DNA from: a virus
DNA length: 64,000 nucleotides
Direction: 5' to 3' (one strand)
IMG/VR virus record: IMGVR_UViG_3300010160_000003
Span: 36,391 to 100,390 of that record
In this document: positions 4,219 through 61,624 of the stretch, one piece after another
How positions within the stretch are numbered: the stretch's first letter is position 1
How the letters are laid out: each line of letters opens with the position of its first letter
The notes under the pieces: model-generated
What the model saw: only the letters and a program-made list of their open reading frames with translations
Database searches by the model: none
Told to the model about the DNA's origin: nothing
Program-made: the position numbers and the translations under genes

Positions 4219-4503
4219 TTATGTCTCCATTGTCAATGATTGCCATGTATTAGCCCAATCTTGCTTTGTTTTATGTTTATTAAATTCTCTAGATATATTT
4301 CCTAATTCAAGAAATACACCACCCCAAACACCATATTCTTTGCCAGAAACACCAACAGCAAAACATGTTGTTGATACTGGACATCTTTGGCACATTGAGT
4401 CTACAATTGAACGGACATCAATGACTTCTTCATACTTATCAAAAAATATATTAGTATCAAGGCCAAGGCAGGCTGCTTCATCTTTCCATAAATGTTGTTT
4501 CAT
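4219..4503 (-). CDS. whiB: WhiB family Fe-S transcription factor
   Basis: W...AAC, C-x2-C-x5-C and GVWGG signature. Confidence 0.92.
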   Translation of the reverse strand: MKQHLWKDEAACLGLDTNIFFDKYEEVIDVRSIVDSMCQRCPVSTTCFAVGVSGKEYGVWGGVFLELGNISREFNKHKTKQDWANTWQSLTMET

Positions 4504-5484: not shown

Positions 5485-5649
5485 TTAGTTATTTTTTTTG
5501 GGAATATTATTTTTTTCTAATGCTGGCTCTGTAGGCAAAACCCTAGTAAGTTTTAACTGTGCTTGTAACAAGTTAAACTCCAGATCTGTTGCCCTTTGTT
5601 TATAAAATATAACTAACTGTTTTACTTCTTCAATTGTTAAATCTTCCAT
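5485..5649 (-). CDS. Small coiled-coil hypothetical protein, missing from ORF track
   Basis: Hand translation MEDLTIEEVKQLVIFYKQRATDLEFNLLQAQLKLTRVLPTEPALEKNNIPKKNN; AAGGGG RBS; fills the gap. Confidence 0.7.
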   Translation of the reverse strand: MEDLTIEEVKQLVIFYKQRATDLEFNLLQAQLKLTRVLPTEPALEKNNIPKKNN

Positions 5650-5652
5650 AAT

Positions 5653-6021
5653 TTATTTCCCCCTTATGCTAAATGGACTTCCTTGCCATAGTTTTTCTGT
5701 CTTACTTTTTTCTCTGTTTACTATTGCCCTACTCCAAGCAAACCCTGCATCTCCACCCCAGGCTAACCACATGATCTTCCCATTAGATGGATTCTCTGCA
5801 TTATCAAAATCTTTTCCTTTTTTATCTACTTCGTGACGGGAAAAAAACGAATACATTCTTTTAACTGTATCAAGAGACATGGATGCACCATTTACAATAT
5901 CTGTTGCTCTACCCCAACCTACTGGAGTTCCAGCACCTGTTGCTTTACCATCTTCTTTATACTTTAAGGCACGTCTTGCAGCGGCCTTCATTCCATCATT
6001 AGGAGAGTATGTATCTGCCAT
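5653..6021 (-). CDS. Conserved phage protein, probably head-associated
   Basis: RMYSFFSRHE and WLAWGGDAG motifs recalled from head-gene fusions in other phages; C-terminal KLWQGSPF. Confidence 0.6.
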   Translation of the reverse strand: MADTYSPNDGMKAAARRALKYKEDGKATGAGTPVGWGRATDIVNGASMSLDTVKRMYSFFSRHEVDKKGKDFDNAENPSNGKIMWLAWGGDAGFAWSRAIVNREKSKTEKLWQGSPFSIRGK

Positions 6022-6155
6022 TATTTATCCTTCTTTGGATGTTTTACTTCATATGGACCAAGAATAGATTTAATTGTACCGTTTTTGTTCATGCGTACAA
6101 TCTTTCCGTCCTTAATTTGTGTTGCATTAAATGATTGTGCTTTTTTCTTTGGCAT
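6021..6155 (-). CDS. Small basic hypothetical protein, missing from ORF track
   Basis: Hand translation MPKKKAQSFNATQIKDGKIVRMNKNGTIKSILGPYEVKHPKKDK; TAATG couplings on both sides. Confidence 0.65.
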   Translation of the reverse strand: MPKKKAQSFNATQIKDGKIVRMNKNGTIKSILGPYEVKHPKKDK

Positions 6156-6760
6156 TATTTTAAAAATCCATTCCAAAAATTATCTGATCCTAATTCTTTT
6201 TCAGACTTATATGTTCCACCACGACGTTTATATTCAGCAACTACCCAAGCATTTGCATAGGCAGATGGATAAACATCAAACTTATCTTTTGCTGCCTGTA
6301 CAACTCTTGCATAAAGTTTTGGATTTGATGGATTGCTACCACCACTGCGTGGTTTAATAATATTTTCATAGTTTGGCTTTGCTTTGCCAATTGATGAATC
6401 ATACATTGCCATTGCAACTTCTGAATTCATAGAATTATTATTTTGAAGATCTGGAATAAATAATGGTTCAATTTTTGTTACCATAGAGGCCTTTACACCA
6501 ATTAAATATTCAGTTTCATCCCAACCATAGTCTTCCTCAAATTCAAGAATACGGACTAAGACTACTGGCTCTTCTGTTGAGGCTTTTAATGAATAGTCAG
6601 AGTATTCTATTCCAAACATGCCATCCACCATCACATACTGAATAATTCCAACATATGTTTCATCTTCTCCTGTTGTAATAACAAAATCACCTTCTACAGG
6701 CATTGACTTTTCTAGGCTTGTAATAACCCTATATTCTCCTACTGGCTTACCTACTGGCAT
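6155..6760 (-). CDS. Two-domain hypothetical protein (Tudor/DUF2945-like N-terminus, DUF5872-like C-terminus)
   Basis: EGDFV...GIIQYVM...EEPVVLVRI...WDETEYLIG; NPKLYARV...PSAYANAWVVAEYKRRGGTY; AGGAGG RBS and own promoter. Confidence 0.55.
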   Translation of the reverse strand: MPVGKPVGEYRVITSLEKSMPVEGDFVITTGEDETYVGIIQYVMVDGMFGIEYSDYSLKASTEEPVVLVRILEFEEDYGWDETEYLIGVKASMVTKIEPLFIPDLQNNNSMNSEVAMAMYDSSIGKAKPNYENIIKPRSGGSNPSNPKLYARVVQAAKDKFDVYPSAYANAWVVAEYKRRGGTYKSEKELGSDNFWNGFLK

Positions 6761-6785
6761 AGCAATCCTCCTAGTTTATACATTG

Positions 6786-6794
6786 ATTATATCA
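6786..6794 (-). promoter_or_regulatory. Extended -10 promoter (TGATATAAT)
   Basis: Intergenic TGn-TATAAT upstream of the RBS of 6760. Confidence 0.65.
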
Positions 6795-6798
6795 GACT

Positions 6799-7128
6799 TT
6801 ACTTTAGTAATAATCGCTTGACTTCTTCTAATGCCCAGATTTCAGGCTTAGTAAGTTTAGAAATCTCATTTTTATCTAGTCCTTTTTCAGATATAGTCAC
6901 TATTGGATCTGGTAATAAAAGGTCAATATTTACATACCCTTTTTCCCATAAATTTAATAGATTATCATTGACTGTCTTAAGATGATCTTCATATAAATCT
7001 GGCATAACTTCTTTCATTTTAGAGGTTATAGCATAAAGAAATTCTCCATTTTCAGAGTCTAGTCCAGCAACCTCTAAGGCCCCTTTAAGTATAAGATTAT
7101 TTATTAAATCATCTTCGTTGTTATTCAT
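6799..7128 (-). CDS. Hypothetical protein (winged-helix-like)
   Basis: ORF track; LWEKGYV...VTISEKG pattern. Confidence 0.6.
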   Translation of the reverse strand: MNNNEDDLINNLILKGALEVAGLDSENGEFLYAITSKMKEVMPDLYEDHLKTVNDNLLNLWEKGYVNIDLLLPDPIVTISEKGLDKNEISKLTKPEIWALEEVKRLLLK

Positions 7129-7378
7129 ATTTAATTAATTCCTCTAACTGTTGCCTTGTCTTTGCACCAGTTACACGGTGAATTTCTTTGTTATTTTTCA
7201 TTACTACAAAAGTAGGAACAGATTTAATCTCAAAATCTTGAGCCATCTCAATTTCTAAATCAACATCAATAATAAAAAATTTAGCCATTGTTTGTTCACG
7301 ATTTAAGTCTTCAACGATTGGCTTTGTTTGTTTACACGGACCACACCAATCAGCAGTAAAATAAAGAATAATATTCAT
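7121..7378 (-). CDS. trxA: Thioredoxin
   Basis: FTADWCGPCK active site and SVPTF cis-Pro motif. Confidence 0.95.
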   Translation of the reverse strand: MNIILYFTADWCGPCKQTKPIVEDLNREQTMAKFFIIDVDLEIEMAQDFEIKSVPTFVVMKNNKEIHRVTGAKTRQQLEELIKYE

Positions 7379-7785
7379 TACTTACCTGATTTTAATCTAG
7401 CCTTTTTAAGTGCCTGGAAATCTTTAACTTTAGTATCGCCAAGGTAACCCCAAGCATAACCATCATTAATCATTTTATCATTGATAGATATTGTATCTCC
7501 ATTAACATATACCCAGCCTAAGATACGACCATACTTTTCAGATGAGTCCATTTTTTCAGTCTTAATTACAACAGACTTAGCATCCTTTAGAGCCTTCTTA
7601 AGGTACTCTTTGGCCTCAAGACCAAGAGCCTTTTCAGCAAGATCCTTTGTCCTAGACTCAGGGGTATCAATACCAGCCAATCTTACACGGGACTGAAATA
7701 AAATATCAAACCCTAAATCAATAAGAACGTCAATGGTATCTCCATCTACTACGTTCTCTACTTTTCTAACATAATACTCATACAT
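7378..7785 (-). CDS. Thermonuclease (SNase-like)
   Basis: VVDGDTI, VRLAGIDTPE, KYGRILG motifs. Confidence 0.92.
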   Translation of the reverse strand: MYEYYVRKVENVVDGDTIDVLIDLGFDILFQSRVRLAGIDTPESRTKDLAEKALGLEAKEYLKKALKDAKSVVIKTEKMDSSEKYGRILGWVYVNGDTISINDKMINDGYAWGYLGDTKVKDFQALKKARLKSGK

Positions 7786-8044: not shown

Positions 8045-8218
8045 CTACTTTCTGTTGTCGGTTGAGTAAAATCCAGTACCGTTAAATATAGCGGTAGGTG
8101 CAGACCATTGCCTTGTCATTGTTTGATTACAACATGATGGTTCTATATCTTCACCATATTCTCTTTTGAATTCAGTAGATATTGAACACACTGTGCATTT
8201 ATAATCATAAACTGGCAT
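8045..8218 (-). CDS. FmdB-family zinc ribbon protein, missing from ORF track
   Basis: Hand translation MPVYDYKCTVC...PSCC...MTRQWSAPTAIFNGTGFYSTDNRK; MPxYxYxC and FxGxGFYxTD signatures. Confidence 0.85.
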   Translation of the reverse strand: MPVYDYKCTVCSISTEFKREYGEDIEPSCCNQTMTRQWSAPTAIFNGTGFYSTDNRK

Positions 8219-51372: not shown

Positions 51373-52530
51373 TTACTCAGAAACGCTATCTGCATCGCCA
51401 TAAGCAACTGCATCTAGTTCTTCCCATTGAATACCAAAGCGGACGAATACTGTGTATTCAATTGTATCCTTCTTTGGCTTGTATTCACGGTTTACAGTAA
51501 TATCACGTTGGAATCCCCAAACACGGTTGGATGGGAATGTTAAGTCAACGAAATTGTCTGGGTAGTAAGGAACTTCCATGACATCAATTCCTAACACACG
51601 AGTTGTACGTGCGTTACCAACTGTTTGTGCTCCACCATCAAGATAGTCTTGACGATTTGCTTGTGTGCTACCAGTGCGATCAGAGAATGCTGAAGAGATT
51701 GCATCTGCTAGTGTACCGTTGTTACGAACAATACCAGAGAATGCATCTGTACCAGCATAAAACTTTAGGTTGCTCTTGACTGCACGATACTTACGTGGCA
51801 TTGCAAGAACAATCTTCTGCATGATAGATGTTGTCCAGTCATCATTTGACAATGAGACAACGGCTTCGTGAGCATCTGTTGTGCCTACGATTGCGCTGTG
51901 CTTAGTCTGGTTTACGAAACCATTCATGATTGAAAGGAAGTCACCTGTTGAAGCATCACCATTAATGGCAAGGTCTTCAATATCGTTTGCGAATGCATTT
52001 GTCATCAAGCGAACTAGATGATCTTCAAGTGCTCCACCTTCAATATTGTCTTCAAGTGATTCTGTAGAAACTTCCCAATCAAGACGAATCTTTTTTGTAG
52101 TAAGTTCTACCTTTGTAAATGTTGCACCAGCGTTTGTGTAGTTTGGACTACCTTGTGCTGCTGCACGAATGACACGCTCTCCAACGTTAACCTTTTCGAT
52201 TTCCATTGTGTTTGCTCGCATTGTAACTTTACGACCATCTTTGGCGAGTACTGTTGCATCCCACACGTAGTCGATGAAGCGACGAGCCTGTTCTGGTGCA
52301 AGAATACCACCTGCTGCCCCAGTTGGGTTTACAGCATTGGCTCCAGTTGTTACACCAAAGTTTGCTGTTGCAGTATTACCGAGTTGTGATCCAACAGACG
52401 CTGCTGCTGAATCTAGACCTGTAGCACTACCAACCCCACCTGATACGAGTGATCCCTGGGAGTTAAGTTCTGCTCCTGAGCCACCTGAACCTGGATAGTT
52501 TTTGGCTATATCTTTATCTTGTTCTGACAT
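51373..52530 (-). CDS. Major capsid protein (HK97 fold)
   Basis: GGILAPEQARRFID, LTTKKIRLDWEVSTESLEDNIEG, DIEDLAINGD, EYKPKKDTIEY; follows protease/scaffold. Confidence 0.93.
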   Translation of the reverse strand: MSEQDKDIAKNYPGSGGSGAELNSQGSLVSGGVGSATGLDSAAASVGSQLGNTATANFGVTTGANAVNPTGAAGGILAPEQARRFIDYVWDATVLAKDGRKVTMRANTMEIEKVNVGERVIRAAAQGSPNYTNAGATFTKVELTTKKIRLDWEVSTESLEDNIEGGALEDHLVRLMTNAFANDIEDLAINGDASTGDFLSIMNGFVNQTKHSAIVGTTDAHEAVVSLSNDDWTTSIMQKIVLAMPRKYRAVKSNLKFYAGTDAFSGIVRNNGTLADAISSAFSDRTGSTQANRQDYLDGGAQTVGNARTTRVLGIDVMEVPYYPDNFVDLTFPSNRVWGFQRDITVNREYKPKKDTIEYTVFVRFGIQWEELDAVAYGDADSVSE

Positions 52531-52556: not shown

Positions 52557-53855
52557 TTAATTAAATAGGTCGGAATTTTTGAGGAAACGTCCGCCCCATA
52601 GGGATTTCTGAACCTTTACAGGCTCAAACTGCACGATCTCGCCTAGATCGCCAGACTTGCGGAAAGCGGTATCTTGCTCAACGGCATCTACTCTCTTTCC
52701 AAACTCATTGAACTGACCCTTGACCTGTGTTACTTCTGTAGACACATCGTCAATGGACTTGTTAAGTGCTGCAACTTGTTCATTAAGAGACTTAATGGTT
52801 GTAGCGAGATCGCCAAAGGCATTAGTAAGAGAGTTCTTGATTTCAGCAACTGCATCAGCAATTGATTCATCTGACTTTGCTACAGCAAGTTCGGCTTCAA
52901 CTGCTGGAGCAACGCTCTCTTCTTCTACTACTGGAGCAGAAGGAACTGCACTACCATCATCTGACTTTTCAACAACAGTATCTGTTGGTGCTTCCTCAAC
53001 GACTGCAGGAGTTTCTACTTCTGCTGGCTGTGCCTCTGGAGTAATTTCAACATTCTCAACTGCAGCATCTAACACTGCTTCTGTTGCTTCTGTCATTTTA
53101 TTTACCTCCTTGGTAATCTTAATTGTACTAATGCCTTTAGCACTATCAACTAAGAACTTTATCATATTTGCTTTTTCTTCATCGTTTTTTTCTACAAAAC
53201 CAATGTTTTCCATGTTTTTGCCACTGATTGGACTTGCTTCTGTTTCTGAATCAGAAACTAATACAATACCGTTTTCGGAATCGTAAAAAACATTTTCAAT
53301 AACAGTATCTGCAGATGTTCCAGTTACAACATTCTGACCATTTATTTTTTCAACAGAAATGATGCTTGCAAATTGATTTGCTGGGCTATCAACTAATGAT
53401 AATTCATAAAGATCATAGTCTTTAATAATACGAATTGACTTGTCTAAGTCTGCATTATAGGCATCGTCCCAAACCTTAATATTGCCACCAATAGAAAAAC
53501 CAGTGTATGTGCCATCTAGGACTTTCTCCCAGGCATTTTGAGCACCTTTTGAAACATAGGCAGAAACATAAACTCCGTTATAAAACTTTTTTGAATTTGG
53601 ATCAAAATAGCGATCTTCTTTAAATGAAATCATTCTTCCTACTGCTGATGGCTGATGCATTTCTCTTAAGTTACCCTTGAAATTTTTAAATGCCTGAACA
53701 CTTGCTTCTGCTGTAACAATGTCGTCTTGTTTATCAATGTTATCAAGAGATGCAAAACCAGAAACCATACGACGTTCTACATCTACCTTGCCAATAGGCA
53801 TTGACAGACGGAGGCTATCTTTGTCTGTTGTCCAATTTGCCTTGTTTATTATCAT
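52557..53855 (-). CDS. Prohead (capsid maturation) protease fused to scaffold
   Basis: RMVSGFAS...DKQDD...LREMH...GFSIGG...ELSLVDSPAN; acidic linker and coiled coil; track ATG at 53867 overlaps the -10 box, so start set to 53855. Confidence 0.9.
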   Translation of the reverse strand: MIINKANWTTDKDSLRLSMPIGKVDVERRMVSGFASLDNIDKQDDIVTAEASVQAFKNFKGNLREMHQPSAVGRMISFKEDRYFDPNSKKFYNGVYVSAYVSKGAQNAWEKVLDGTYTGFSIGGNIKVWDDAYNADLDKSIRIIKDYDLYELSLVDSPANQFASIISVEKINGQNVVTGTSADTVIENVFYDSENGIVLVSDSETEASPISGKNMENIGFVEKNDEEKANMIKFLVDSAKGISTIKITKEVNKMTEATEAVLDAAVENVEITPEAQPAEVETPAVVEEAPTDTVVEKSDDGSAVPSAPVVEEESVAPAVEAELAVAKSDESIADAVAEIKNSLTNAFGDLATTIKSLNEQVAALNKSIDDVSTEVTQVKGQFNEFGKRVDAVEQDTAFRKSGDLGEIVQFEPVKVQKSLWGGRFLKNSDLFN

Positions 53856-53896
53856 ATCAGAATCCATTATACCAAATGTTTTATTAGATTTCTCAA

Positions 53897-55504
53897 TTAT
53901 TGAGACGATCTACCCTCTCCAGCAGGATTACGCCCAGCAACTGTACTTGGAGAGTCAGAGTTGTTATTTGTTCTTTGTGCATCTCTTGCCCTATTGCCAG
54001 CAAGGTTTGCAGCGGCATCTGTAGCCTGTCTTGGAGTCATAATAAATGGAGTATCTCCATCTTTACGTAGTGGCAAATCAAGAGCCTGACGAGCCTCATT
54101 TGGCATCATAATCTGAGTCTTAACAAGCCTTTCAAGAATCTGTGATTGAGCAATTTCATCTGTTAATGTTAGTTCATTAAACTTAAGTTCAAGAACATCT
54201 GTTTTTTCTTTAATAATTTTGTTAACAACTTTTTCTAAATGATGTTGTGCTGGTCTGGCAACTTGCTCTTTAAATGTACGATCTTGTGAAAGTGCTGCTG
54301 CTAAACCAGACTCTGAGCCACCAAGTTTAGATATAGGTACTTGATGGGCAATTAGAATATCGTCACGATTTTGTTTACGATATTCTTTGAAAGATCCCTC
54401 TTGAATACCGTTTTCAATTGGCTCCATTTTAAACTCAACCTTGTTCTGGTCTGTATCTCCAGGGAGTGGAATATAAAGGGTTCTGTGAGACTGCGACTTA
54501 AGACCAGTCTGTAAAAATCTAAACATTTTATCTTCTGCGTCTCCAGAAAGTTTTGCACCCTTTAAAGTAATGATGTATCGTGGTACAGCCTTGTTTTCAA
54601 AATAATCAATGTTGTATCTTGATGCTAGTTGATCACCAATTAACGACGGCATTGCAGAAACAATATCTGGAATCCCATAATAAGTATTTAATGGAGAGTA
54701 TGACTTAAGATGAATAATTTCATTTGCACGGCTATCTGCTGTTACTGGATTCGTATTACTTGCACCAAAATTTCTAAAATAAACAACAGCCTGACCAATA
54801 ATCTGAAGGTAGCCATCATTAAGTCTACGAACACGAACAGTAGTCGCTGGGATATGCCCAAGATATCCAATCTCGCCCTTAGTAGTTCTGCCTATTTCAA
54901 TAAAACCATTGCCTGTTGCTTCAACATCTGTATAAACCTTTTCCATAACTTTTGTAAAAGAATCATCATCGTTAAGGTTTTCTAGCCAATCACGAAGTTC
55001 AATCTTGGCTCTTTCAATTCTGCTTCTTGCTCTACCAGTTGCGCCTTCATCTTCTGAAGTTTCTAGTCTTAGCGCAGTCCTATCTGTAATGTCAAACCTA
55101 TAACCAAGACCTACAATGTTTTCTACCTTTGCATCAATTGCAGCGTGGTTTGAAAAACATGTATCATAAAAATTTGCAAGTTCATACATATTATATGGTG
55201 GAGTAATTACGTCAAATAGACCGTATCCATTTCTGTATACCGTTCCAGGATTAAGTGCTTTAGAGCCAGCATCGTCTGCTCCAGAAGGAGTTGCATTTGC
55301 TGAGTCTAGATATGCTGCTGTTGGAGAAACTGCTTTGCTAATCTGTCTTACTATACGACGGCGAAAGTTTTGATCTAAGCCAGTGTATTCTTTAAGTTCT
55401 TCCCAGTTTTTATTAAATGGGTCACTTAACTTAAACTCATTATCTTTTTCTTCTTGAGTATTTAGACTTGCCCTAACATACTGGAAGTTATCATCATCAG
55501 TCAC
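53897..55504 (-). CDS. Portal protein
   Basis: HAAIDAKVENIVGLGY, YYGIPD, YFENKAVP, AHQVP, PNEARQ; likely GTG start at 55504. Confidence 0.92.
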   Translation of the reverse strand: MTDDDNFQYVRASLNTQEEKDNEFKLSDPFNKNWEELKEYTGLDQNFRRRIVRQISKAVSPTAAYLDSANATPSGADDAGSKALNPGTVYRNGYGLFDVITPPYNMYELANFYDTCFSNHAAIDAKVENIVGLGYRFDITDRTALRLETSEDEGATGRARSRIERAKIELRDWLENLNDDDSFTKVMEKVYTDVEATGNGFIEIGRTTKGEIGYLGHIPATTVRVRRLNDGYLQIIGQAVVYFRNFGASNTNPVTADSRANEIIHLKSYSPLNTYYGIPDIVSAMPSLIGDQLASRYNIDYFENKAVPRYIITLKGAKLSGDAEDKMFRFLQTGLKSQSHRTLYIPLPGDTDQNKVEFKMEPIENGIQEGSFKEYRKQNRDDILIAHQVPISKLGGSESGLAAALSQDRTFKEQVARPAQHHLEKVVNKIIKEKTDVLELKFNELTLTDEIAQSQILERLVKTQIMMPNEARQALDLPLRKDGDTPFIMTPRQATDAAANLAGNRARDAQRTNNNSDSPSTVAGRNPAGEGRSSQ

Positions 55505-55895
55505 TTTCGTACGCATCCCTTCCGTGTGTTTTTAATGTCTTCTGTGCATCTGCAATTGCACCAAGGTCATTCACGTTTGGAATTAACCCTTGCCTCATTC
55601 TATCTTTTTGTTCTGAGTACTCTTCTTCAGATACCCTGGTTAATCCAGCAACAAAATGCGCTGTTCCCGTTCCATCATCACCATTAAATACTGCAGCCCT
55701 TTTAAGTTCTGCAATTTTTGAAATGTCACCTTTTTGAGCAGGAACGTTTAATACAGAGCCCGTTCCATCAGTAAACCACTTTCCGTTTGATTTCTTATAT
55801 ACGTATAGGCCCCAGTCATAATGCTTATCAATCACCTTACGACGTACATTTTCAACAATAGGTTTGCCAGTTTTTGGGCTAAATAAAGAATCCAT
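55497..55895 (-). CDS. Conserved hypothetical protein upstream of portal
   Basis: ORF track; ATG 55895 lies 7 nt after TGGTATACT. Confidence 0.7.
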   Translation of the reverse strand: MDSLFSPKTGKPIVENVRRKVIDKHYDWGLYVYKKSNGKWFTDGTGSVLNVPAQKGDISKIAELKRAAVFNGDDGTGTAHFVAGLTRVSEEEYSEQKDRMRQGLIPNVNDLGAIADAQKTLKTHGRDAYESD

Positions 55896-55913: not shown

Positions 55914-58900
55914 TCATACTGGTGCCCCTACAGATGACGACCAACTGGTGTCATTATAGAATTTCATCTTGTCAGACTCAAATATCATGCCTTCTTCATC
56001 ATCAATGATAATCTTATTAGTTCCCATATAATTATTATAAACATCTTCTGCGTTTACGCCATAAAGTGATGATGATGCTATAAATAAAACGCCATCCCAG
56101 GTATAGTTATTTAACCAGTATGACCATTCATAATCTGTTATGCCTTCTTGTTTAACCTTGTTCCATGTCCTATTAATCTTTGACTGTATCTGCTGAAGAC
56201 TATTGGCTTGATAGTATGCAATGTTATTAAATATTGCGGGGCTGTTTAAATTTACAGATCCCAGGAATAAGTCAAGGTTTAAGGCTGTTGCAAAGTTTAT
56301 TCCTAGAACTGCCCATTCTTTTATTGTTAAAGTTGGCTCACGAACAAGGTTTCCATTTAAAAAATATGATATACCATCAAAATCGGAGTTATCATTTTTG
56401 TTTTTTGCATAAATTTTTCCTCTTTGACCCAATTCATCATTAGCAACTATGTAAAAGATAACTGTATTACTTTTGTGTTCTATCTCAAATAAACTTATTG
56501 GTGTTGCAGGAAAAGATTCTTGGTCATATCTAATCCAAGATTGAAAAGCACTTATTCTGTAGTTTTCTGCAACAGATTGATTAATTGGCATTGATATTCC
56601 ACGATCAAAATTAGAATCAAAATCTCCACGAACCTGAATGCCCGATGTTTTATTTACATAAAGATATGGAGTGCTTCCTTTATAAATGCTAAATGGATTT
56701 TTTGATTTATAGTCATAGTAAATTCCAGACCGCTTGTAAGGAAACAGATCAATTCCAGATCTCGTACCAATTGCATTAAATGAGTTGTTATTAAGAGCCT
56801 GAGATGCAATTTCTAACTTTTTAATAAGAACTGGTTTTGTTAGTATTCCACGAACATTAAAGTCTAAACTATAAACAATTGCTAATTGGTTAAAATCAAT
56901 ATCTTTTCTTGGATAAATTAAAGTATTGTCAATGATTTCAAATTTTGTTGTAGACCACGATGAGTAATTTGAAATATCAATAACTGAGTTTTCTGTTGGT
57001 AAAACCGTAGTTGTAAATTTGCTTGGTAAAGAATTTGCTCCATCAAAAATATATTGAAAAGTTACATAACTTTTAATAGAGGCATTTTCTGTATTGTATT
57101 CGTAGTATTTTAAAGCATTTTGAGATAAATCTTGATAATTATTTAATCCCGTAAAAAGTGCATTATCTAATTGTTTGTATGTTTTTCGTACTGGATTTTT
57201 GTATCCATTTGTAAACTCTTCATATGTCCAAGATTCTATAGTCTCTGTTTCTAATGGGCTAGATGGAGAGGGATATCCAAAGTTAAACTGCAAGAAGTCT
57301 AAATCATAAAATGAATTTCCTGCTTCATTTTGTACGTACTGTCCAAAATAAGATAGAGGAAGATAGTCTTCCCAATGACCTGCAACACCAATATCTAAGA
57401 ATAATTTATTATATGCAAATGTTGGCAAAAGAGTATAACTTGCTGTATGAGCCAAAAGTGCTAGAGCAGTCTCTGATGACTCAATCCCGCTACCCGTATA
57501 GGTATCAACAATAACGGTTCCATTATCCTCAAAATAGTCAGATATAGAATTTGCATTTAAGGCTGTTGTAAGCCCAACAGAAAAAATATATCCTTTAAAT
57601 GTTTTATCTCCATTGTTGTCTCCACCAACATAAAGACTTAAAGAGTTTTGATTACCAAAGAAGGTTGCAACATTACCACCATTTTCAGCCACAAGACTTT
57701 CAATATTAATTCCTGCTGCAAAAAGTTCTTGTAATCCAATATCGTCTGTGCGATAAATCACTTCTGAAACTCCACTATATACTAAAGAATAAACAATTTC
57801 TAGGCCATCCACGTTTACTGTAAAATAGTTACCTGTGCTTTGATTGTATATTTTAAATAATATCTGTTCTTCATCATTAGTGCCACTTCCTTGGTTATTT
57901 ATTTGAAATACTCCATATATAGAGGCCACTTGATCATTTAATACATTAAAGTTTGGAAAGTTAATGTATGATCCTTTATCGTCCCAGGAATTATCAGGAT
58001 TTAGTGATATAAAATAACTATCTGTTCCTAGATTTCCACTTGCAATATTATCATATAGAGTGGTTGAATCATCATATAGATCTTGAAGTGTTTTTGTTCC
58101 CGTAAAAATTGTTGGTAAAGTATATTGAGGAGTTGTTAGGGATGCTGCTGTTGTAGATAAATTATCAAAACTACCCTGTTCCCATTGAGCAAAACTTGGG
58201 TAGTTATAATTAGCCGTATAATCTGCAAATGGATAATCAATTATTGCAGAACTTCCACTATAAGCAGAGTCAATACTTTCTGATGAACCAACTCCTTGCC
58301 CATAGACCCAACGTCTTTTTGCAAGAATATCTGGCACTTTGTATGAGTAAATTGCTACACAGTCAATTTCAATTGGAGTTACGTCTTCGTATGCATAAAA
58401 CCCAAGCCAGTTTTCTTCATTTCCAGATGCTAGTGTCATTGAAGAAGTTACAAAATCTAAAGATATAACCTGCTCTCCATTTATCATAACTGTTGCATTG
58501 TCTTTAATTACTGTTATATCAATTAACATTGGCCTAAACCATTCACCAACAAAATGAGAACTAAAATTTCCACCAATAAAAAGAGTTAAGAATCCACTAT
58601 CTACGTATAAACCATCTCCGCTTGCAATTGGACCAAAAATTCTTTTTGGAGTATAACTATCTGAGTTAATTCTTGCCCAAAACTCAACAGTATAATTGCT
58701 ATATCTTCCTTCTTCGTGTAAAAAGCCTTTTCCAGGAAATATAACTGATGGGCTATTTCCATTTGGTATAAGTTTTGTAACACCAGATGCACCAAAAACC
58801 AAAGGTATTCCAGTATTTTTTGCAACTAAAGAATTTTCATTAACAAGGTAGTATGCAGTGTCTGATGAAATTCCATATGCTGATGCTGGAACAACTTCAC

Positions 58901-59555
58901 TTGTTGTTGTCAAATCAATGCCTGCTGGAAAAGCCTCTGACTCTATTCCTAATGACCTTACATTAAACTCTTCAGACCACTGGCCAAGTGTTATTCCATT
59001 AAAATAAAATTCATAATCTGTAATGCTTACTCCGCCATCAGTAGTTACAATTTTTATAACTATTCGCATATTTGTGTTTTCATCTGGTATTTGGAAAGTT
59101 TCAGATATAAAACCCCAACCCTGAAACAAAGAAGTTTCAAAGGTTTTAAAATTTTGAACTATCTCAGATGTTGTTGTATCTGTATACTCATAGCCAATAG
59201 AGACTGATTCAATATATGTACTGTTTGAATAAAAATGTGTTCCTATACAAAATGTTCCAAGGTCTTGATTTAGATCTTGAAAATTTATAATATTAGGACT
59301 TATTAAAATTGCTTCATTTGTTGCCCCGACTGGAACATCACAACTAACTTTTGTATTATAACTATCAACAAATGGCTCGCCAGTTAAAGCAGTGCCAGAT
59401 GAAAAGGTACATCCTGTTTCAGACCAAAGACCTAAAATATTTCTTTGAGACTCTGAGATTAAACTAATATAGTCAAGTTTATCATCTAATGCCCAAAGAA
59501 CCAGTGGGTGTTCACTAAAGATTTTTTCTGCATATAAGTTAGATGGGTTAGACAT
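55914..59555 (-). CDS. Large virion structural protein with LamG/concanavalin-like domains
   Basis: YAEKIFSEHPLVLWALDD N-terminus, YTVEFWARI...ATVMINGEQV...IDCVAIY; beta-rich 1213 aa. Confidence 0.65.
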   Translation of the reverse strand: MSNPSNLYAEKIFSEHPLVLWALDDKLDYISLISESQRNILGLWSETGCTFSSGTALTGEPFVDSYNTKVSCDVPVGATNEAILISPNIINFQDLNQDLGTFCIGTHFYSNSTYIESVSIGYEYTDTTTSEIVQNFKTFETSLFQGWGFISETFQIPDENTNMRIVIKIVTTDGGVSITDYEFYFNGITLGQWSEEFNVRSLGIESEAFPAGIDLTTTSEVVPASAYGISSDTAYYLVNENSLVAKNTGIPLVFGASGVTKLIPNGNSPSVIFPGKGFLHEEGRYSNYTVEFWARINSDSYTPKRIFGPIASGDGLYVDSGFLTLFIGGNFSSHFVGEWFRPMLIDITVIKDNATVMINGEQVISLDFVTSSMTLASGNEENWLGFYAYEDVTPIEIDCVAIYSYKVPDILAKRRWVYGQGVGSSESIDSAYSGSSAIIDYPFADYTANYNYPSFAQWEQGSFDNLSTTAASLTTPQYTLPTIFTGTKTLQDLYDDSTTLYDNIASGNLGTDSYFISLNPDNSWDDKGSYINFPNFNVLNDQVASIYGVFQINNQGSGTNDEEQILFKIYNQSTGNYFTVNVDGLEIVYSLVYSGVSEVIYRTDDIGLQELFAAGINIESLVAENGGNVATFFGNQNSLSLYVGGDNNGDKTFKGYIFSVGLTTALNANSISDYFEDNGTVIVDTYTGSGIESSETALALLAHTASYTLLPTFAYNKLFLDIGVAGHWEDYLPLSYFGQYVQNEAGNSFYDLDFLQFNFGYPSPSSPLETETIESWTYEEFTNGYKNPVRKTYKQLDNALFTGLNNYQDLSQNALKYYEYNTENASIKSYVTFQYIFDGANSLPSKFTTTVLPTENSVIDISNYSSWSTTKFEIIDNTLIYPRKDIDFNQLAIVYSLDFNVRGILTKPVLIKKLEIASQALNNNSFNAIGTRSGIDLFPYKRSGIYYDYKSKNPFSIYKGSTPYLYVNKTSGIQVRGDFDSNFDRGISMPINQSVAENYRISAFQSWIRYDQESFPATPISLFEIEHKSNTVIFYIVANDELGQRGKIYAKNKNDNSDFDGISYFLNGNLVREPTLTIKEWAVLGINFATALNLDLFLGSVNLNSPAIFNNIAYYQANSLQQIQSKINRTWNKVKQEGITDYEWSYWLNNYTWDGVLFIASSSLYGVNAEDVYNNYMGTNKIIIDDEEGMIFESDKMKFYNDTSWSSSVGAPV

Positions 59556-59590: not shown

Positions 59591-61624
59591 CTAATATAAT
59601 TTAATCTCACAAGCATCTGTTGAGCAGTATTTTTCTGATTCTGCATCTAAATTATCTTTTCCATCATAAATTGCAGACCAATCAATCTTTCCAATTGTTC
59701 CAACGTAAGAGTTGTACTCTTCCCTGGTAATCTCTGTATAAGGCTGTTGGAGATATGTTTTGTTTCCCATTGGAAGAAATGAGACTGCCTTTAGTTGACC
59801 CTCATACATATTTAAGGCTGGAGCAATAAACTTTGTTTCTTCTTCTTTGTCAAATGAAAGCGTAACAGAAACTCCATTGTCAGACCAATACTTCTGTGCT
59901 GTTGCTGCCAAACCAATTTTTTCAAATAGACTAACTTGCTTTTCAGAACGTTTGTGTCCTGATGCAACTGGGAAGTAAACTACTGAGGTATTTGCTGATA
60001 CAACATCGTCTTCAACTTTATATCCCGCCGCTTTAAATAAATAAATCATTGGATCGGTATTGCCAAAACGAATAGCACGAAGATAAAACTCTCCACCAGG
60101 ACCCCAATGAACTCCAGGTGTTGCCCCAGATAAAAGAGAAACAGATCCTGAAGGTTTAACGGTAGTTACACGAACGGATTCACGAACACATAGCCACTCT
60201 GAATACTTGTGGTCATAGTGACGAATCTTATTATATCCCTCATCCATCCACTCACGCAATGCTGGTAGACCGCTAGTGTCTGCAAAAGATGCAATGCCTG
60301 TTAGGGATGTTCCAATGCGACGATTTCTTTGCATAATGCCATTTGTCTGTTGCCAATGTGTTGGCATTAACGTTACAGTCTTTCCATACAAATATGCAAA
60401 CTTTAGTGTCTTAAGGAAGTCCTCTTTAGACTCATGACGATTTAAATGCACTTCTACAAGTGTGCAAAGTTCATAAGATTCTAAGGGTTGTTCAGCACAT
60501 GGATTAAATCCCATAATTCTGGAATCTTTATAATCTGGTGCATCTTTTAATCTTCCGTATTCTCTTGCTACATCTAACCAAATAAATCCTGGCTCTCCGT
60601 TGTCTGCAATTAAATCTACATAGTCTTCATATTTTGTTCCAACTGTTGCTGAAATAGAATTATTAGACATCCAAGCCCAGCCTGGTTTTTCTGGATCATA
60701 AGAGTTTCTTTCTGGAAACACTTCTGGGTTTTTAAGATTAATAAAACCTTCATCTTCTGCTGCGCCAAGTGCAAGGGTAGCAGAACGACGAACATTTCCA
60801 GAAACAACACATGTCCCAATTAAATTTACTAAGTCAACAATTGCACGGCTATCTAATAGTTCCCCCGCCCTAGAGCCAATTACATTTCTAATACGTGTAT
60901 GTAGTTCAATTAGTGGTGCTGGACCGCTGGCTACCCCTCCAAAGCCTTTAATGGGTGATCCTAGAGGACGGATAAGGTCATAGGTAAACTCTTGAATAGA
61001 CTGGTTTTGACGGAGGTATGAATTTATTAAATACCGCACAGATTCAACCCAACCCTCACGAGTATCTGGTATTTCATAAACTACTGCTGGCTCTGTAGGT
61101 GCATAAATAGACATTTGTTTGTCTTGGCCAAGGGTATCAAATCCAACTCCAATACCCAGCATTAATGCATCCATTACCCAAGCAAATAATGCACCAGGAT
61201 CATTACGATCAATATCTCTGGTTGAAACCATTGCACAATTTTGAAGGGATGCTGAATTACGCTTCTCCATAGTCATAGGAGTTCCAAATGCCCAAAGACC
61301 ACGACCTGGTGGTGTCCATTTTAATTCAAACATTCTTTGAAAGGCTTCTTGGGCAGACTTCTGAGCCTTGTTATCATTCCAAGGTAGACGATTGTCTTTA
61401 GCATGATTTTTTTGAACTGAATACATACCCTCAATTACACGACGACAAACTTCATGCCAGCGTTCTTTTGTCCCGTCTTCTTTAACACGAGAATATGTAC
61501 GAATAAATGTAACCTCTCCTAATGAGTTAGACCCTGCATCTGAAAATCCAAATGGTGCTGGGATGGTTTGATATTTATTTACAAATTCTTCTGATAGACG
61601 AAACGAGAATATGGTTTCTGACAT
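59591..61624 (-). CDS. nrdJ: Class II (adenosylcobalamin-dependent) ribonucleotide reductase
   Basis: TPPGRGLW, LQNC, GNVRRSA, NPCAEQ, TTVKPSG, C-terminal CSTDAC. Confidence 0.93.
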   Translation of the reverse strand: MSETIFSFRLSEEFVNKYQTIPAPFGFSDAGSNSLGEVTFIRTYSRVKEDGTKERWHEVCRRVIEGMYSVQKNHAKDNRLPWNDNKAQKSAQEAFQRMFELKWTPPGRGLWAFGTPMTMEKRNSASLQNCAMVSTRDIDRNDPGALFAWVMDALMLGIGVGFDTLGQDKQMSIYAPTEPAVVYEIPDTREGWVESVRYLINSYLRQNQSIQEFTYDLIRPLGSPIKGFGGVASGPAPLIELHTRIRNVIGSRAGELLDSRAIVDLVNLIGTCVVSGNVRRSATLALGAAEDEGFINLKNPEVFPERNSYDPEKPGWAWMSNNSISATVGTKYEDYVDLIADNGEPGFIWLDVAREYGRLKDAPDYKDSRIMGFNPCAEQPLESYELCTLVEVHLNRHESKEDFLKTLKFAYLYGKTVTLMPTHWQQTNGIMQRNRRIGTSLTGIASFADTSGLPALREWMDEGYNKIRHYDHKYSEWLCVRESVRVTTVKPSGSVSLLSGATPGVHWGPGGEFYLRAIRFGNTDPMIYLFKAAGYKVEDDVVSANTSVVYFPVASGHKRSEKQVSLFEKIGLAATAQKYWSDNGVSVTLSFDKEEETKFIAPALNMYEGQLKAVSFLPMGNKTYLQQPYTEITREEYNSYVGTIGKIDWSAIYDGKDNLDAESEKYCSTDACEIKLY

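Follow-up and report, generated by a model that had tools for sequence, protein, structure and literature searches.

The window analyzed here is a stretch of 64,000 nucleotides comprising bases 36391-100390 of IMG/VR virus record IMGVR_UViG_3300010160_000003, a 100,390-bp virus contig with direct terminal repeats. Its G+C content is 35.5%, similar portal, protease and capsid genes are found in Streptomyces phages of the Stanwilliamsviridae, and the host is probably a low-G+C freshwater actinobacterium. The element in question is a short peptide, W-x-G-x(0-2)-F, found near the C-terminus of two small accessory proteins of 122 and 201 amino acids (aa) and of the 436-aa prohead protease-scaffold (Table 1). 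When the three open reading frames (ORFs) and their ends, as quoted in an earlier note on this DNA, were read again, they matched exactly: the 122-aa protein ends in ...EKLWQGSPFSIRGK, the 201-aa protein in ...SDNFWNGFLK and the protease-scaffold in VQKSLWGGRFLKNSDLFN, with the motif lying 6-13 residues from the C-terminus in all three.

Table 1. Coordinates of the features discussed, numbered from the first base of the window.
Feature	Position	Strand	Description and basis
WhiB regulator gene	4219-4503	-	
54-aa coiled-coil ORF	5485..5649	-	last operon gene, 3 nucleotides after the 122-aa gene
122-aa protein	5653..6021	-	five-helix phrog_2859 domain (residues 1-110) and disordered tail; phrog_2859 E=1.3e-29, residues 6-108
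Tail of 122-aa protein	5656..5691	-	residues 111-122; motif W112-Q-G-S-P-F117 at 5671-5688
44-aa lysine-rich (basic) ORF	6021..6155	-	ATG overlaps stop of 201-aa gene (TAATG); stop overlaps ATG of 122-aa gene (TAATG)
201-aa protein	6155..6760	-	Pfam, AlphaFold2 segment confidence, Tudor-like matches
Tail of 201-aa protein	6158..6205	-	residues 186-201; motif W196-N-G-F199 at 6164-6175
Extended -10 promoter-like element	6786..6794	-	TGATATAAT, followed by AGGAGG, upstream of the 201-aa gene
Thioredoxin (WCGPC)	7121-7378		operon neighbor
Staphylococcal-nuclease homologue	7378-7785		operon neighbor
Small Zn-ribbon protein	8045-8218		operon neighbor
CHAP and PG_binding lysin	8218-9000		operon neighbor
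Major capsid protein (HK97-like)	51373..52530	-	phrog_1623 E=2.8e-73, phrog_10; so annotated in Streptomyces phage relatives
Prohead protease-scaffold fusion	52557..53867	-	XkdF/S78 protease, acidic linker, coiled coil, C-terminal tail; Pfam and PHROG
Tail of protease-scaffold	52560..52613	-	C-terminal tail; W424-F428 at 52584-52598
Portal protein	53897..55516	-	Pfam Phage_portal E=2.1e-29

The 122-aa protein belongs to the phrog_2859 family, as indicated by its profile match and by structural matches in BFVD with template modeling (TM) scores of 0.7-0.9. Its AlphaFold2 (AF2) model has a mean predicted local distance difference test (pLDDT) value of 88.6, which drops to 54 over residues 111-120 and to 43 at residues 121-122, and the tail is therefore predicted to be disordered. 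The phrog_2859 domain returned no sequence match in the PDB and no PDB fold match with Foldseek, and with regard to its function only a weak match to DUF7440 was obtained, the protein atlas giving nothing useful. The 201-aa protein consists of a disordered N-terminus (residues 1-18, containing LEKS), a Tudor/SH3-like beta-barrel (about 20-100), a disordered linker (108-141, containing IGKA), a DUF5872 helical hairpin (144-188) and a disordered tail with pLDDT below 50. The DUF5872 match scores 30.4 bits against a cut-off of 27.5 and covers only profile positions 1-49 of 116, and the Tudor-like structural matches of the barrel are modest (Z about 7). In both proteins the tails and linkers are predicted to be disordered, and AF2 does not pack the tails on the domains.

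Comparison with relatives of this phage, which come from IMG/VR metagenome contigs, indicates that the 122-aa and 201-aa proteins are not independent cases: their genes are neighbors in the same operon, and both proteins are modules of a single shuffled family. At the same locus, relative G003 encodes one 361-aa protein made up of an N-terminal Cys/His module, followed by the barrel, by a Cys-rich module and by phrog_2859; G004 encodes phrog_2859 together with Hva1_TUDOR; and G005 has only a 45-aa N-terminal module followed by ...KKSAESTWTGFFYNNIQKSE, the 77-aa protein carrying STWTGFF. Homologues of the 122-aa protein are numerous in metagenomes, with 1175 of near length and 4846 longer. The two proteins had been described in the earlier note as unrelated, a description that does not hold given their shared operon, their single modular family and the fusion of their domains to each other in relatives.

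The third carrier is identified as an S78/XkdF protease-scaffold both by its predicted protease domain (Peptidase_S78_2, 25.0 bits with a cut-off of 24; Peptidase_S78, 23.6 with a cut-off of 21; phrog_9427, E=7.9e-110) and by the gene order portal-protease-capsid, in which it is flanked by the portal and capsid genes. Its C-terminus is near-invariant among 24 relatives of 55-97% identity, reading DTAFRKSGDLGE..[QE]KSLWGG[RS]FLK..DLF[NKR], with WGGSF in L065 and LWGERF in L084 as variants, and it barely varies across the six genomes compared (G000-G005). The protease-scaffold of Streptomyces phage Coruscant ends in ...KKSDSKWGGHFLMNTSDIR, which includes KWGGHFL. On these alignments the scaffold tail appears to be a conserved functional element.

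The tails of the two accessory proteins are conserved as well, as was found when C-termini were searched for the motif across relatives. Of 216 homologues in which no other domain follows phrog_2859, 198 terminate in K-[VLI]-W-x-[GDN]-S-[PA]-F and a further 2-6 residues, with free variation at x. The 201-aa protein has 120 listed homologues, of which 119 keep FWNGFLK or TK[SN][ILV]W[DG]G[SA]F[DN]P... (that is, W-x-G-(x)-F) past the variable linker that follows DUF5872; the remaining one is a gene-fusion form with a phrog_2859-type tail. W196 and G198 are invariant across 44 aligned homologues. This pattern points to selection on W, G/D/N and F of the tail, the x positions and the linker ahead of it being variable.

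The peptide is also portable. It is carried by phrog_2859, DUF5872, the Cys-rich module, the N-terminal Cys/His module and others, at least five unrelated modules in all, and past the Cys-rich module, DUF5872 and other modules the proteins often end in KS[ILV]W.G.F[LI]K, which is the scaffold core. Tails reproducing this core include those of P0264 (IQKSIWGGTFLK), P0146 (VQKSVWNGTFLK), P0276 (EKSFWGGFF) and P0347, P0371 and P0381 (KSVWGGAF). In proteins that continue into another domain, the place of the tail is taken by a related junction, K[AS]-[LM]F-x-[DN]-FG-[KT]D[YF]T...[IVL]FK[AS], so that the peptide, proposed initially as a C-terminal element, serves as an internal domain junction too.

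Several further observations concern the tail and its possible carriers. A recurrent C-terminal module, ...HIK/IRRARALG..D.LP..W(K), for which there is no Pfam name, follows the peptide in many relatives (P0137, P0143, P0214, P0215, P0252 and similar). A 65-aa ORF of G003 (G003:C1:5494-5691 (+)) that adjoins tail-fibre-like genes ends in ...WTWDGTNFVEPLE, and a 134-aa ORF of G004 (G004:C1:8587-8991 (+)) contains TSLWGTRFLD internally; these may be further carriers or chance matches. At the nucleotide level (window 5640-5740 (-) compared with L087:1785-1885), the 20 nucleotides encoding W-Q-G-S-P-F are identical in G000 and G001, the codons just upstream differing at many synonymous sites, which reflects either nucleotide-level constraint or a small-sample effect. 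Constraint from a ribosome-binding site was discarded as the cause of W-x-G-S-P-F conservation, as the AGGGGGA Shine-Dalgarno sequence extends over no more than the final R-G-K codons and the motif is retained at internal positions too.

The link between the accessory tails and the scaffold tail was assessed by pattern counts and profile searches. Across 155 greedy ORFs of the complete 100-kb genome there are nine matches to W.G.{0,2}F, and the three that fall within the last 13 residues are exactly those of the three named proteins. This C-terminal clustering is only mildly unusual and is weak evidence alone, because the motif was defined after the fact and a 10-mer scan favors other peptides. 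That scan, ungapped with BLOSUM62 and KSLWGGRFLK over six related genomes, was rejected as a link, the window tails being outscored by GVWGGVF of WhiB and by unrelated proteins, and a broader pattern, [LIVMAFT][WF].[GDNS].{0,2}F, was rejected as unspecific, matching for example FNGTGFY of the small Zn-ribbon protein. A profile built from 28 tails, none of them from the scaffold, was then run against the 894 ORFs of the six genomes, and its top five hits were the five scaffold tails with a W-x-G-x-F core (G000-G004; G005 has WGERF), at 11.7 and 7.1-7.3 bits compared with maxima of 3.0-7.5 bits in shuffled proteomes. In a profile of all 176 cargo tails, also set aside, the phrog_2859 type dominates and the scaffold reaches only 5.9 bits (E 0.7).

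Domain fusions provide a separate connection to the phage head. In other phages phrog_2859 is the N-terminal domain of 800-975-aa protease-capsid polyproteins, as in Roseobacter phages CRP-8xx, Synechococcus phages S-CBS1 and S-CBS3, P0344 and P0380; the CRP-821 polyprotein also holds DUF5824, Peptidase_S78 and Phage_capsid, and in Vibrio phages phrog_2859 heads a 444-aa coiled-coil protein of the head module. A domain tally of 88 long representative homologues yielded Peptidase_S78 (8), Phage_Mu_F (7), portal (3) and Phage_capsid (2) among head proteins, and Hva1_TUDOR (15), DUF5872 (5), ADPrib_exo_Tox, an ADP-ribosyltransferase (4), Zeta_toxin (1) and Acb1 (1) among the rest. Close relatives at 70-78% identity show the domain order MuF, phrog_2859, ADP-ribosyltransferase, and the BFVD entries that match the phrog_2859 domain in structure belong to proteins with the annotations prohead protease, XkdF and portal. 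Comparison thus supports phrog_2859 as a likely head-associated module in other phages. In the covalently fused CRP-821 form, no W-x-G-x-F peptide follows the phrog_2859 domain, an absence that fits a tag needed only by a free-standing module.

Based on these comparisons, we favor with moderate confidence the interpretation that the tail is a scaffold-like capsid-targeting tag on modular, polyvalent-type cargo and would bring the modules into the procapsid. A wider version, which we put forward more tentatively, is that an abundant clade of tailed freshwater actinobacterial phages may pack interchangeable small effector modules by means of a portable C-terminal peptide copied from the coat-binding end of the scaffold, as a non-covalent substitute for fusion to MuF, portal or protease. 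We infer coat-protein binding, packaging, cleavage and ejection as the steps involved. During procapsid assembly, the scaffold tail would dock to the inward-facing side of the capsid protein, the major capsid protein being the presumed binding partner; the accessory proteins would take the same docking site and co-assemble into the head as cargo; and the trapped cargo, possibly trimmed at Lys-Ser/Ala in disordered linkers (in the case of the 201-aa protein only), would probably be ejected together with the DNA. With respect to the earlier suggestion of a borrowed scaffold peptide, the tail is conserved, predicted to be disordered, portable and matches the scaffold C-terminus in its core, but the two carriers do not count as independent cases.

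A number of observations weigh against capsid targeting. The ancestry of the tail is common to both accessory proteins by module shuffling, so that no more than two occurrences are independent, one in the scaffold and one in the cargo family. The similarity of the tails alone within the genome is not significant, and both window tails differ from the scaffold tail by one-residue indels. The test with the 28-tail profile is partly circular because its tails were picked via the W.[GDN].F pattern, and in it WhiB scored 7.0 bits compared with 7.1 bits for the lowest of the scaffold tails, while one of 20 shuffled proteomes reached 7.5. In seven of the 120 listed near-length clusters the motif is fused in frame to the 54-aa coiled coil, a Gln replacing the stop codon of the window, so that in these read-through fusions (P0058, P0079, P0106, P0110 and P0112, for example) it is not C-terminal, and some family members (TUDOR-last and some DUF5872-last) lack a terminal tail and have the internal junction only. 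The putative cargo genes lie 46 kb from the head genes, amid genes for lysin, nuclease, thioredoxin and WhiB; in Streptomyces phage Coruscant, which has the scaffold tail, the protease was the only WGGxF protein that a search turned up; and the phage studied here is known only via metagenomes.

Some of these points are shared by an alternative in which the motif serves one shuffled family as a structural cap or as a linker between domains, its likeness to the scaffold is coincidental and the proteins are cytoplasmic and unpackaged. The presence of the motif at internal junctions and its inheritance with the modules, the lack of significance within the genome, the equal score of the WhiB peptide and the setting amid non-structural genes are all in keeping with it, as are the standalone, tail-less phrog_2859 proteins that adjoin replication genes in PaBG. 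Against it, the tails modeled by AF2 are of low confidence and are not packed on the domains; the same peptide stands behind at least five unrelated modules, exact KS[ILV]WGGxF tails recur in divergent members, and about one in five long homologues joins phrog_2859 to a head-assembly protein. We regard this alternative as unlikely.

A second alternative, to which we give somewhat less credence, is that the peptide docks the prohead protease rather than the coat protein and marks the scaffold and polyprotein-like substrates for nearby Lys-Ser/Ala processing. The earlier note had pointed to many hydrophobic-x-K-[S/A] sites in the scaffold, and this was borne out: seven are present compared with 2.3 expected from shuffles (P about 0.005), and VAKS, FRKS and VQKS are conserved amid an otherwise variable acidic linker. 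The 201-aa protein has two such sites, LEKS and IGKA (P=0.16 from shuffles), both in predicted disordered segments, and about 100 of 120 homologues of this protein retain IGK[SA] at the disordered boundary between domains. K-S/A cleavage is plausible for the scaffold and the 201-aa protein. The proposal that cargo is released in this way stands as a candidate for the 201-aa protein but not for the 122-aa protein, a scan of which found zero sites.

The enrichment and retention of these sites are what docking of the protease would lead one to expect, as are the K-S that the scaffold and the type-2 tails have immediately ahead of the motif and the placement of the motif at domain junctions, which it punctuates. 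However, an element at the extreme C-terminus would free only 2-15 residues upon cleavage, the phrog_2859-last tails are preceded by EK, KK, NK or TK and not by K-[SA], and the absence of sites from the 122-aa protein is not readily accommodated. Protease docking would still imply packaging, because prohead proteases are normally active only within procapsids. A third alternative is binding of a host factor, for example a chaperone or a protease that reads the peptide as a degron, for the timing or turnover of scaffold and accessory proteins. Degrons and short linear motifs are typically short, disordered and hydrophobic, as is this C-terminal peptide, but such binding leaves the fusion of the same modules to head-assembly proteins unexplained, we know of no actinobacterial degron or docking motif of such form (no search aimed at one was made), and we consider it highly improbable.

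Capsid targeting by a scaffold-like tag would have partial precedents. The C-terminus of the HK97 gp4 protease is said, in work of Duda et al. from 2013, to bring gp4 into the procapsid. The C-terminus of the SPN3US protease gp245 acts as a packaging signal (PMC7411985). In both systems, as proposed here, the C-terminus of a protease or scaffold is the element of procapsid entry, whereas no natural non-structural protein with a copy of the signal is known there. The scaffold of phage 80alpha and the CpmB protein of SaPI1 have a C-terminal helix-and-hook in common and use one site on the capsid protein (PMC5644958). As in that pair, a second protein here carries the C-terminal peptide of the scaffold (roughly 16 residues in 80alpha) and would use the scaffold's capsid-protein site; the peptide is shared as a W-x-G-x-F core, exactly as KS[ILV]WGGxF in family members and with one-residue indels in the window tails. 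Unlike here, CpmB is a satellite-encoded alternative scaffold that alters capsid size, and its RIIK motif is unrelated. The carriers in this genome are the phage's own small globular modules and would therefore be cargo, not scaffold.

Capsid targeting sequences are established for T4 (IPI-III and Alt) and for P1 (the N-terminal signal of DarB) (PMC9024508, PMC7411985). There too a short portable peptide takes non-structural proteins into the prohead, the small cargo is likely ejected with the DNA and a protease may trim it; in contrast, those signals are N-terminal, bind the scaffolding core and are unrelated in sequence, and the T4 signal is removed at [LI]-x-E. The peptide shared in this genome is C-terminal or at domain junctions, in place of a T4-type N-terminal propeptide of about 10-20 residues. 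Encapsulin cargo-loading peptides are comparable in that unrelated cargo shares a disordered C-terminal peptide, with a proposed docking site on the inside of an HK97-fold shell. The motif differs, however, and the container here is an actual phage capsid, complete with portal, protease and DNA: encapsulin cargo genes adjoin the shell gene and there is no portal or packaging, whereas here the distance to the capsid gene is 46 kb and portal and tail genes are present.

The closest architectural parallel is with the polyvalent proteins of phages, which have head-packaged modular architectures (Iyer et al. 2017, PMC5512222). The phrog_2859 domain recurs with MuF, portal or protease anchors and with effector domains, in MuF-ADP-ribosyltransferase, Zeta-toxin, Acb1 and protease-capsid fusions, with the same bead-on-a-string shuffling. 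The window proteins, with one and two domains, are not large multidomain polypeptides, and the fused forms are found in relatives; the modules here are short, free-standing and without a covalent anchor, which the peptide tag would replace. A search of the literature found no such tag described for siphoviruses with HK97-type protease-scaffolds, and to our knowledge none is known elsewhere for them.

If this interpretation is correct, it would supply a sequence-readable rule for the proteins that a phage carries in its head and injects, and would make phrog_2859, DUF5872, DUF5824 and Hva1_TUDOR modules candidate injected effectors, in a family with thousands of members in lake metagenomes. It would join scaffold C-terminal docking, capsid-targeting sequences and polyvalent proteins in one natural system, constitute a phage counterpart of encapsulin cargo loading, and offer a naturally occurring peptide with which foreign proteins could be loaded into HK97-fold capsids.

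With regard to expression, the 122-aa gene is without a promoter of its own and is coupled to the 201-aa gene by the two TAATG stop/start overlaps via the 44-aa ORF. As the genes overlap and a single promoter element lies upstream, they form one operon with one promoter. The 44-aa ORF (6021-6155) gave no PHROG match, and the 133-nucleotide gap that holds it is the same in relative G001. The extended -10 element TGNTATAAT occurs at 15 sites in the window, all on the coding (minus) strand, compared with 5.8 expected (for example at 9029, 9323, 9917, 13285, 29625, 46687, 48226, 51305 and 59573), one of them being the element ahead of the 201-aa gene. Genes preceded by it include not only those of the head and tail but also lysin and further non-structural genes. 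It is thus the general promoter type of this genome arm and no specific marker of late genes. The earlier statement that both accessory genes are driven by the promoter class of the structural genes is accordingly correct in part: the element is present upstream of the 201-aa gene, but the 122-aa gene has none and the class is not specific to structural genes.

Two large ORFs were noted near the head genes. Upstream of the portal gene, with a 134-aa ORF between, lies a 1213-aa ORF (55914-59555 (-)) that had no match in Pfam or PHROG; a W[LI]GF near residue 365-388 is kept in it in G000-G004 and was not seen in the incomplete G005 record. The 677-aa ORF adjoining the head module (59591-61624 (-)) resembles a class II (B12-type) ribonucleotide reductase, not a terminase.

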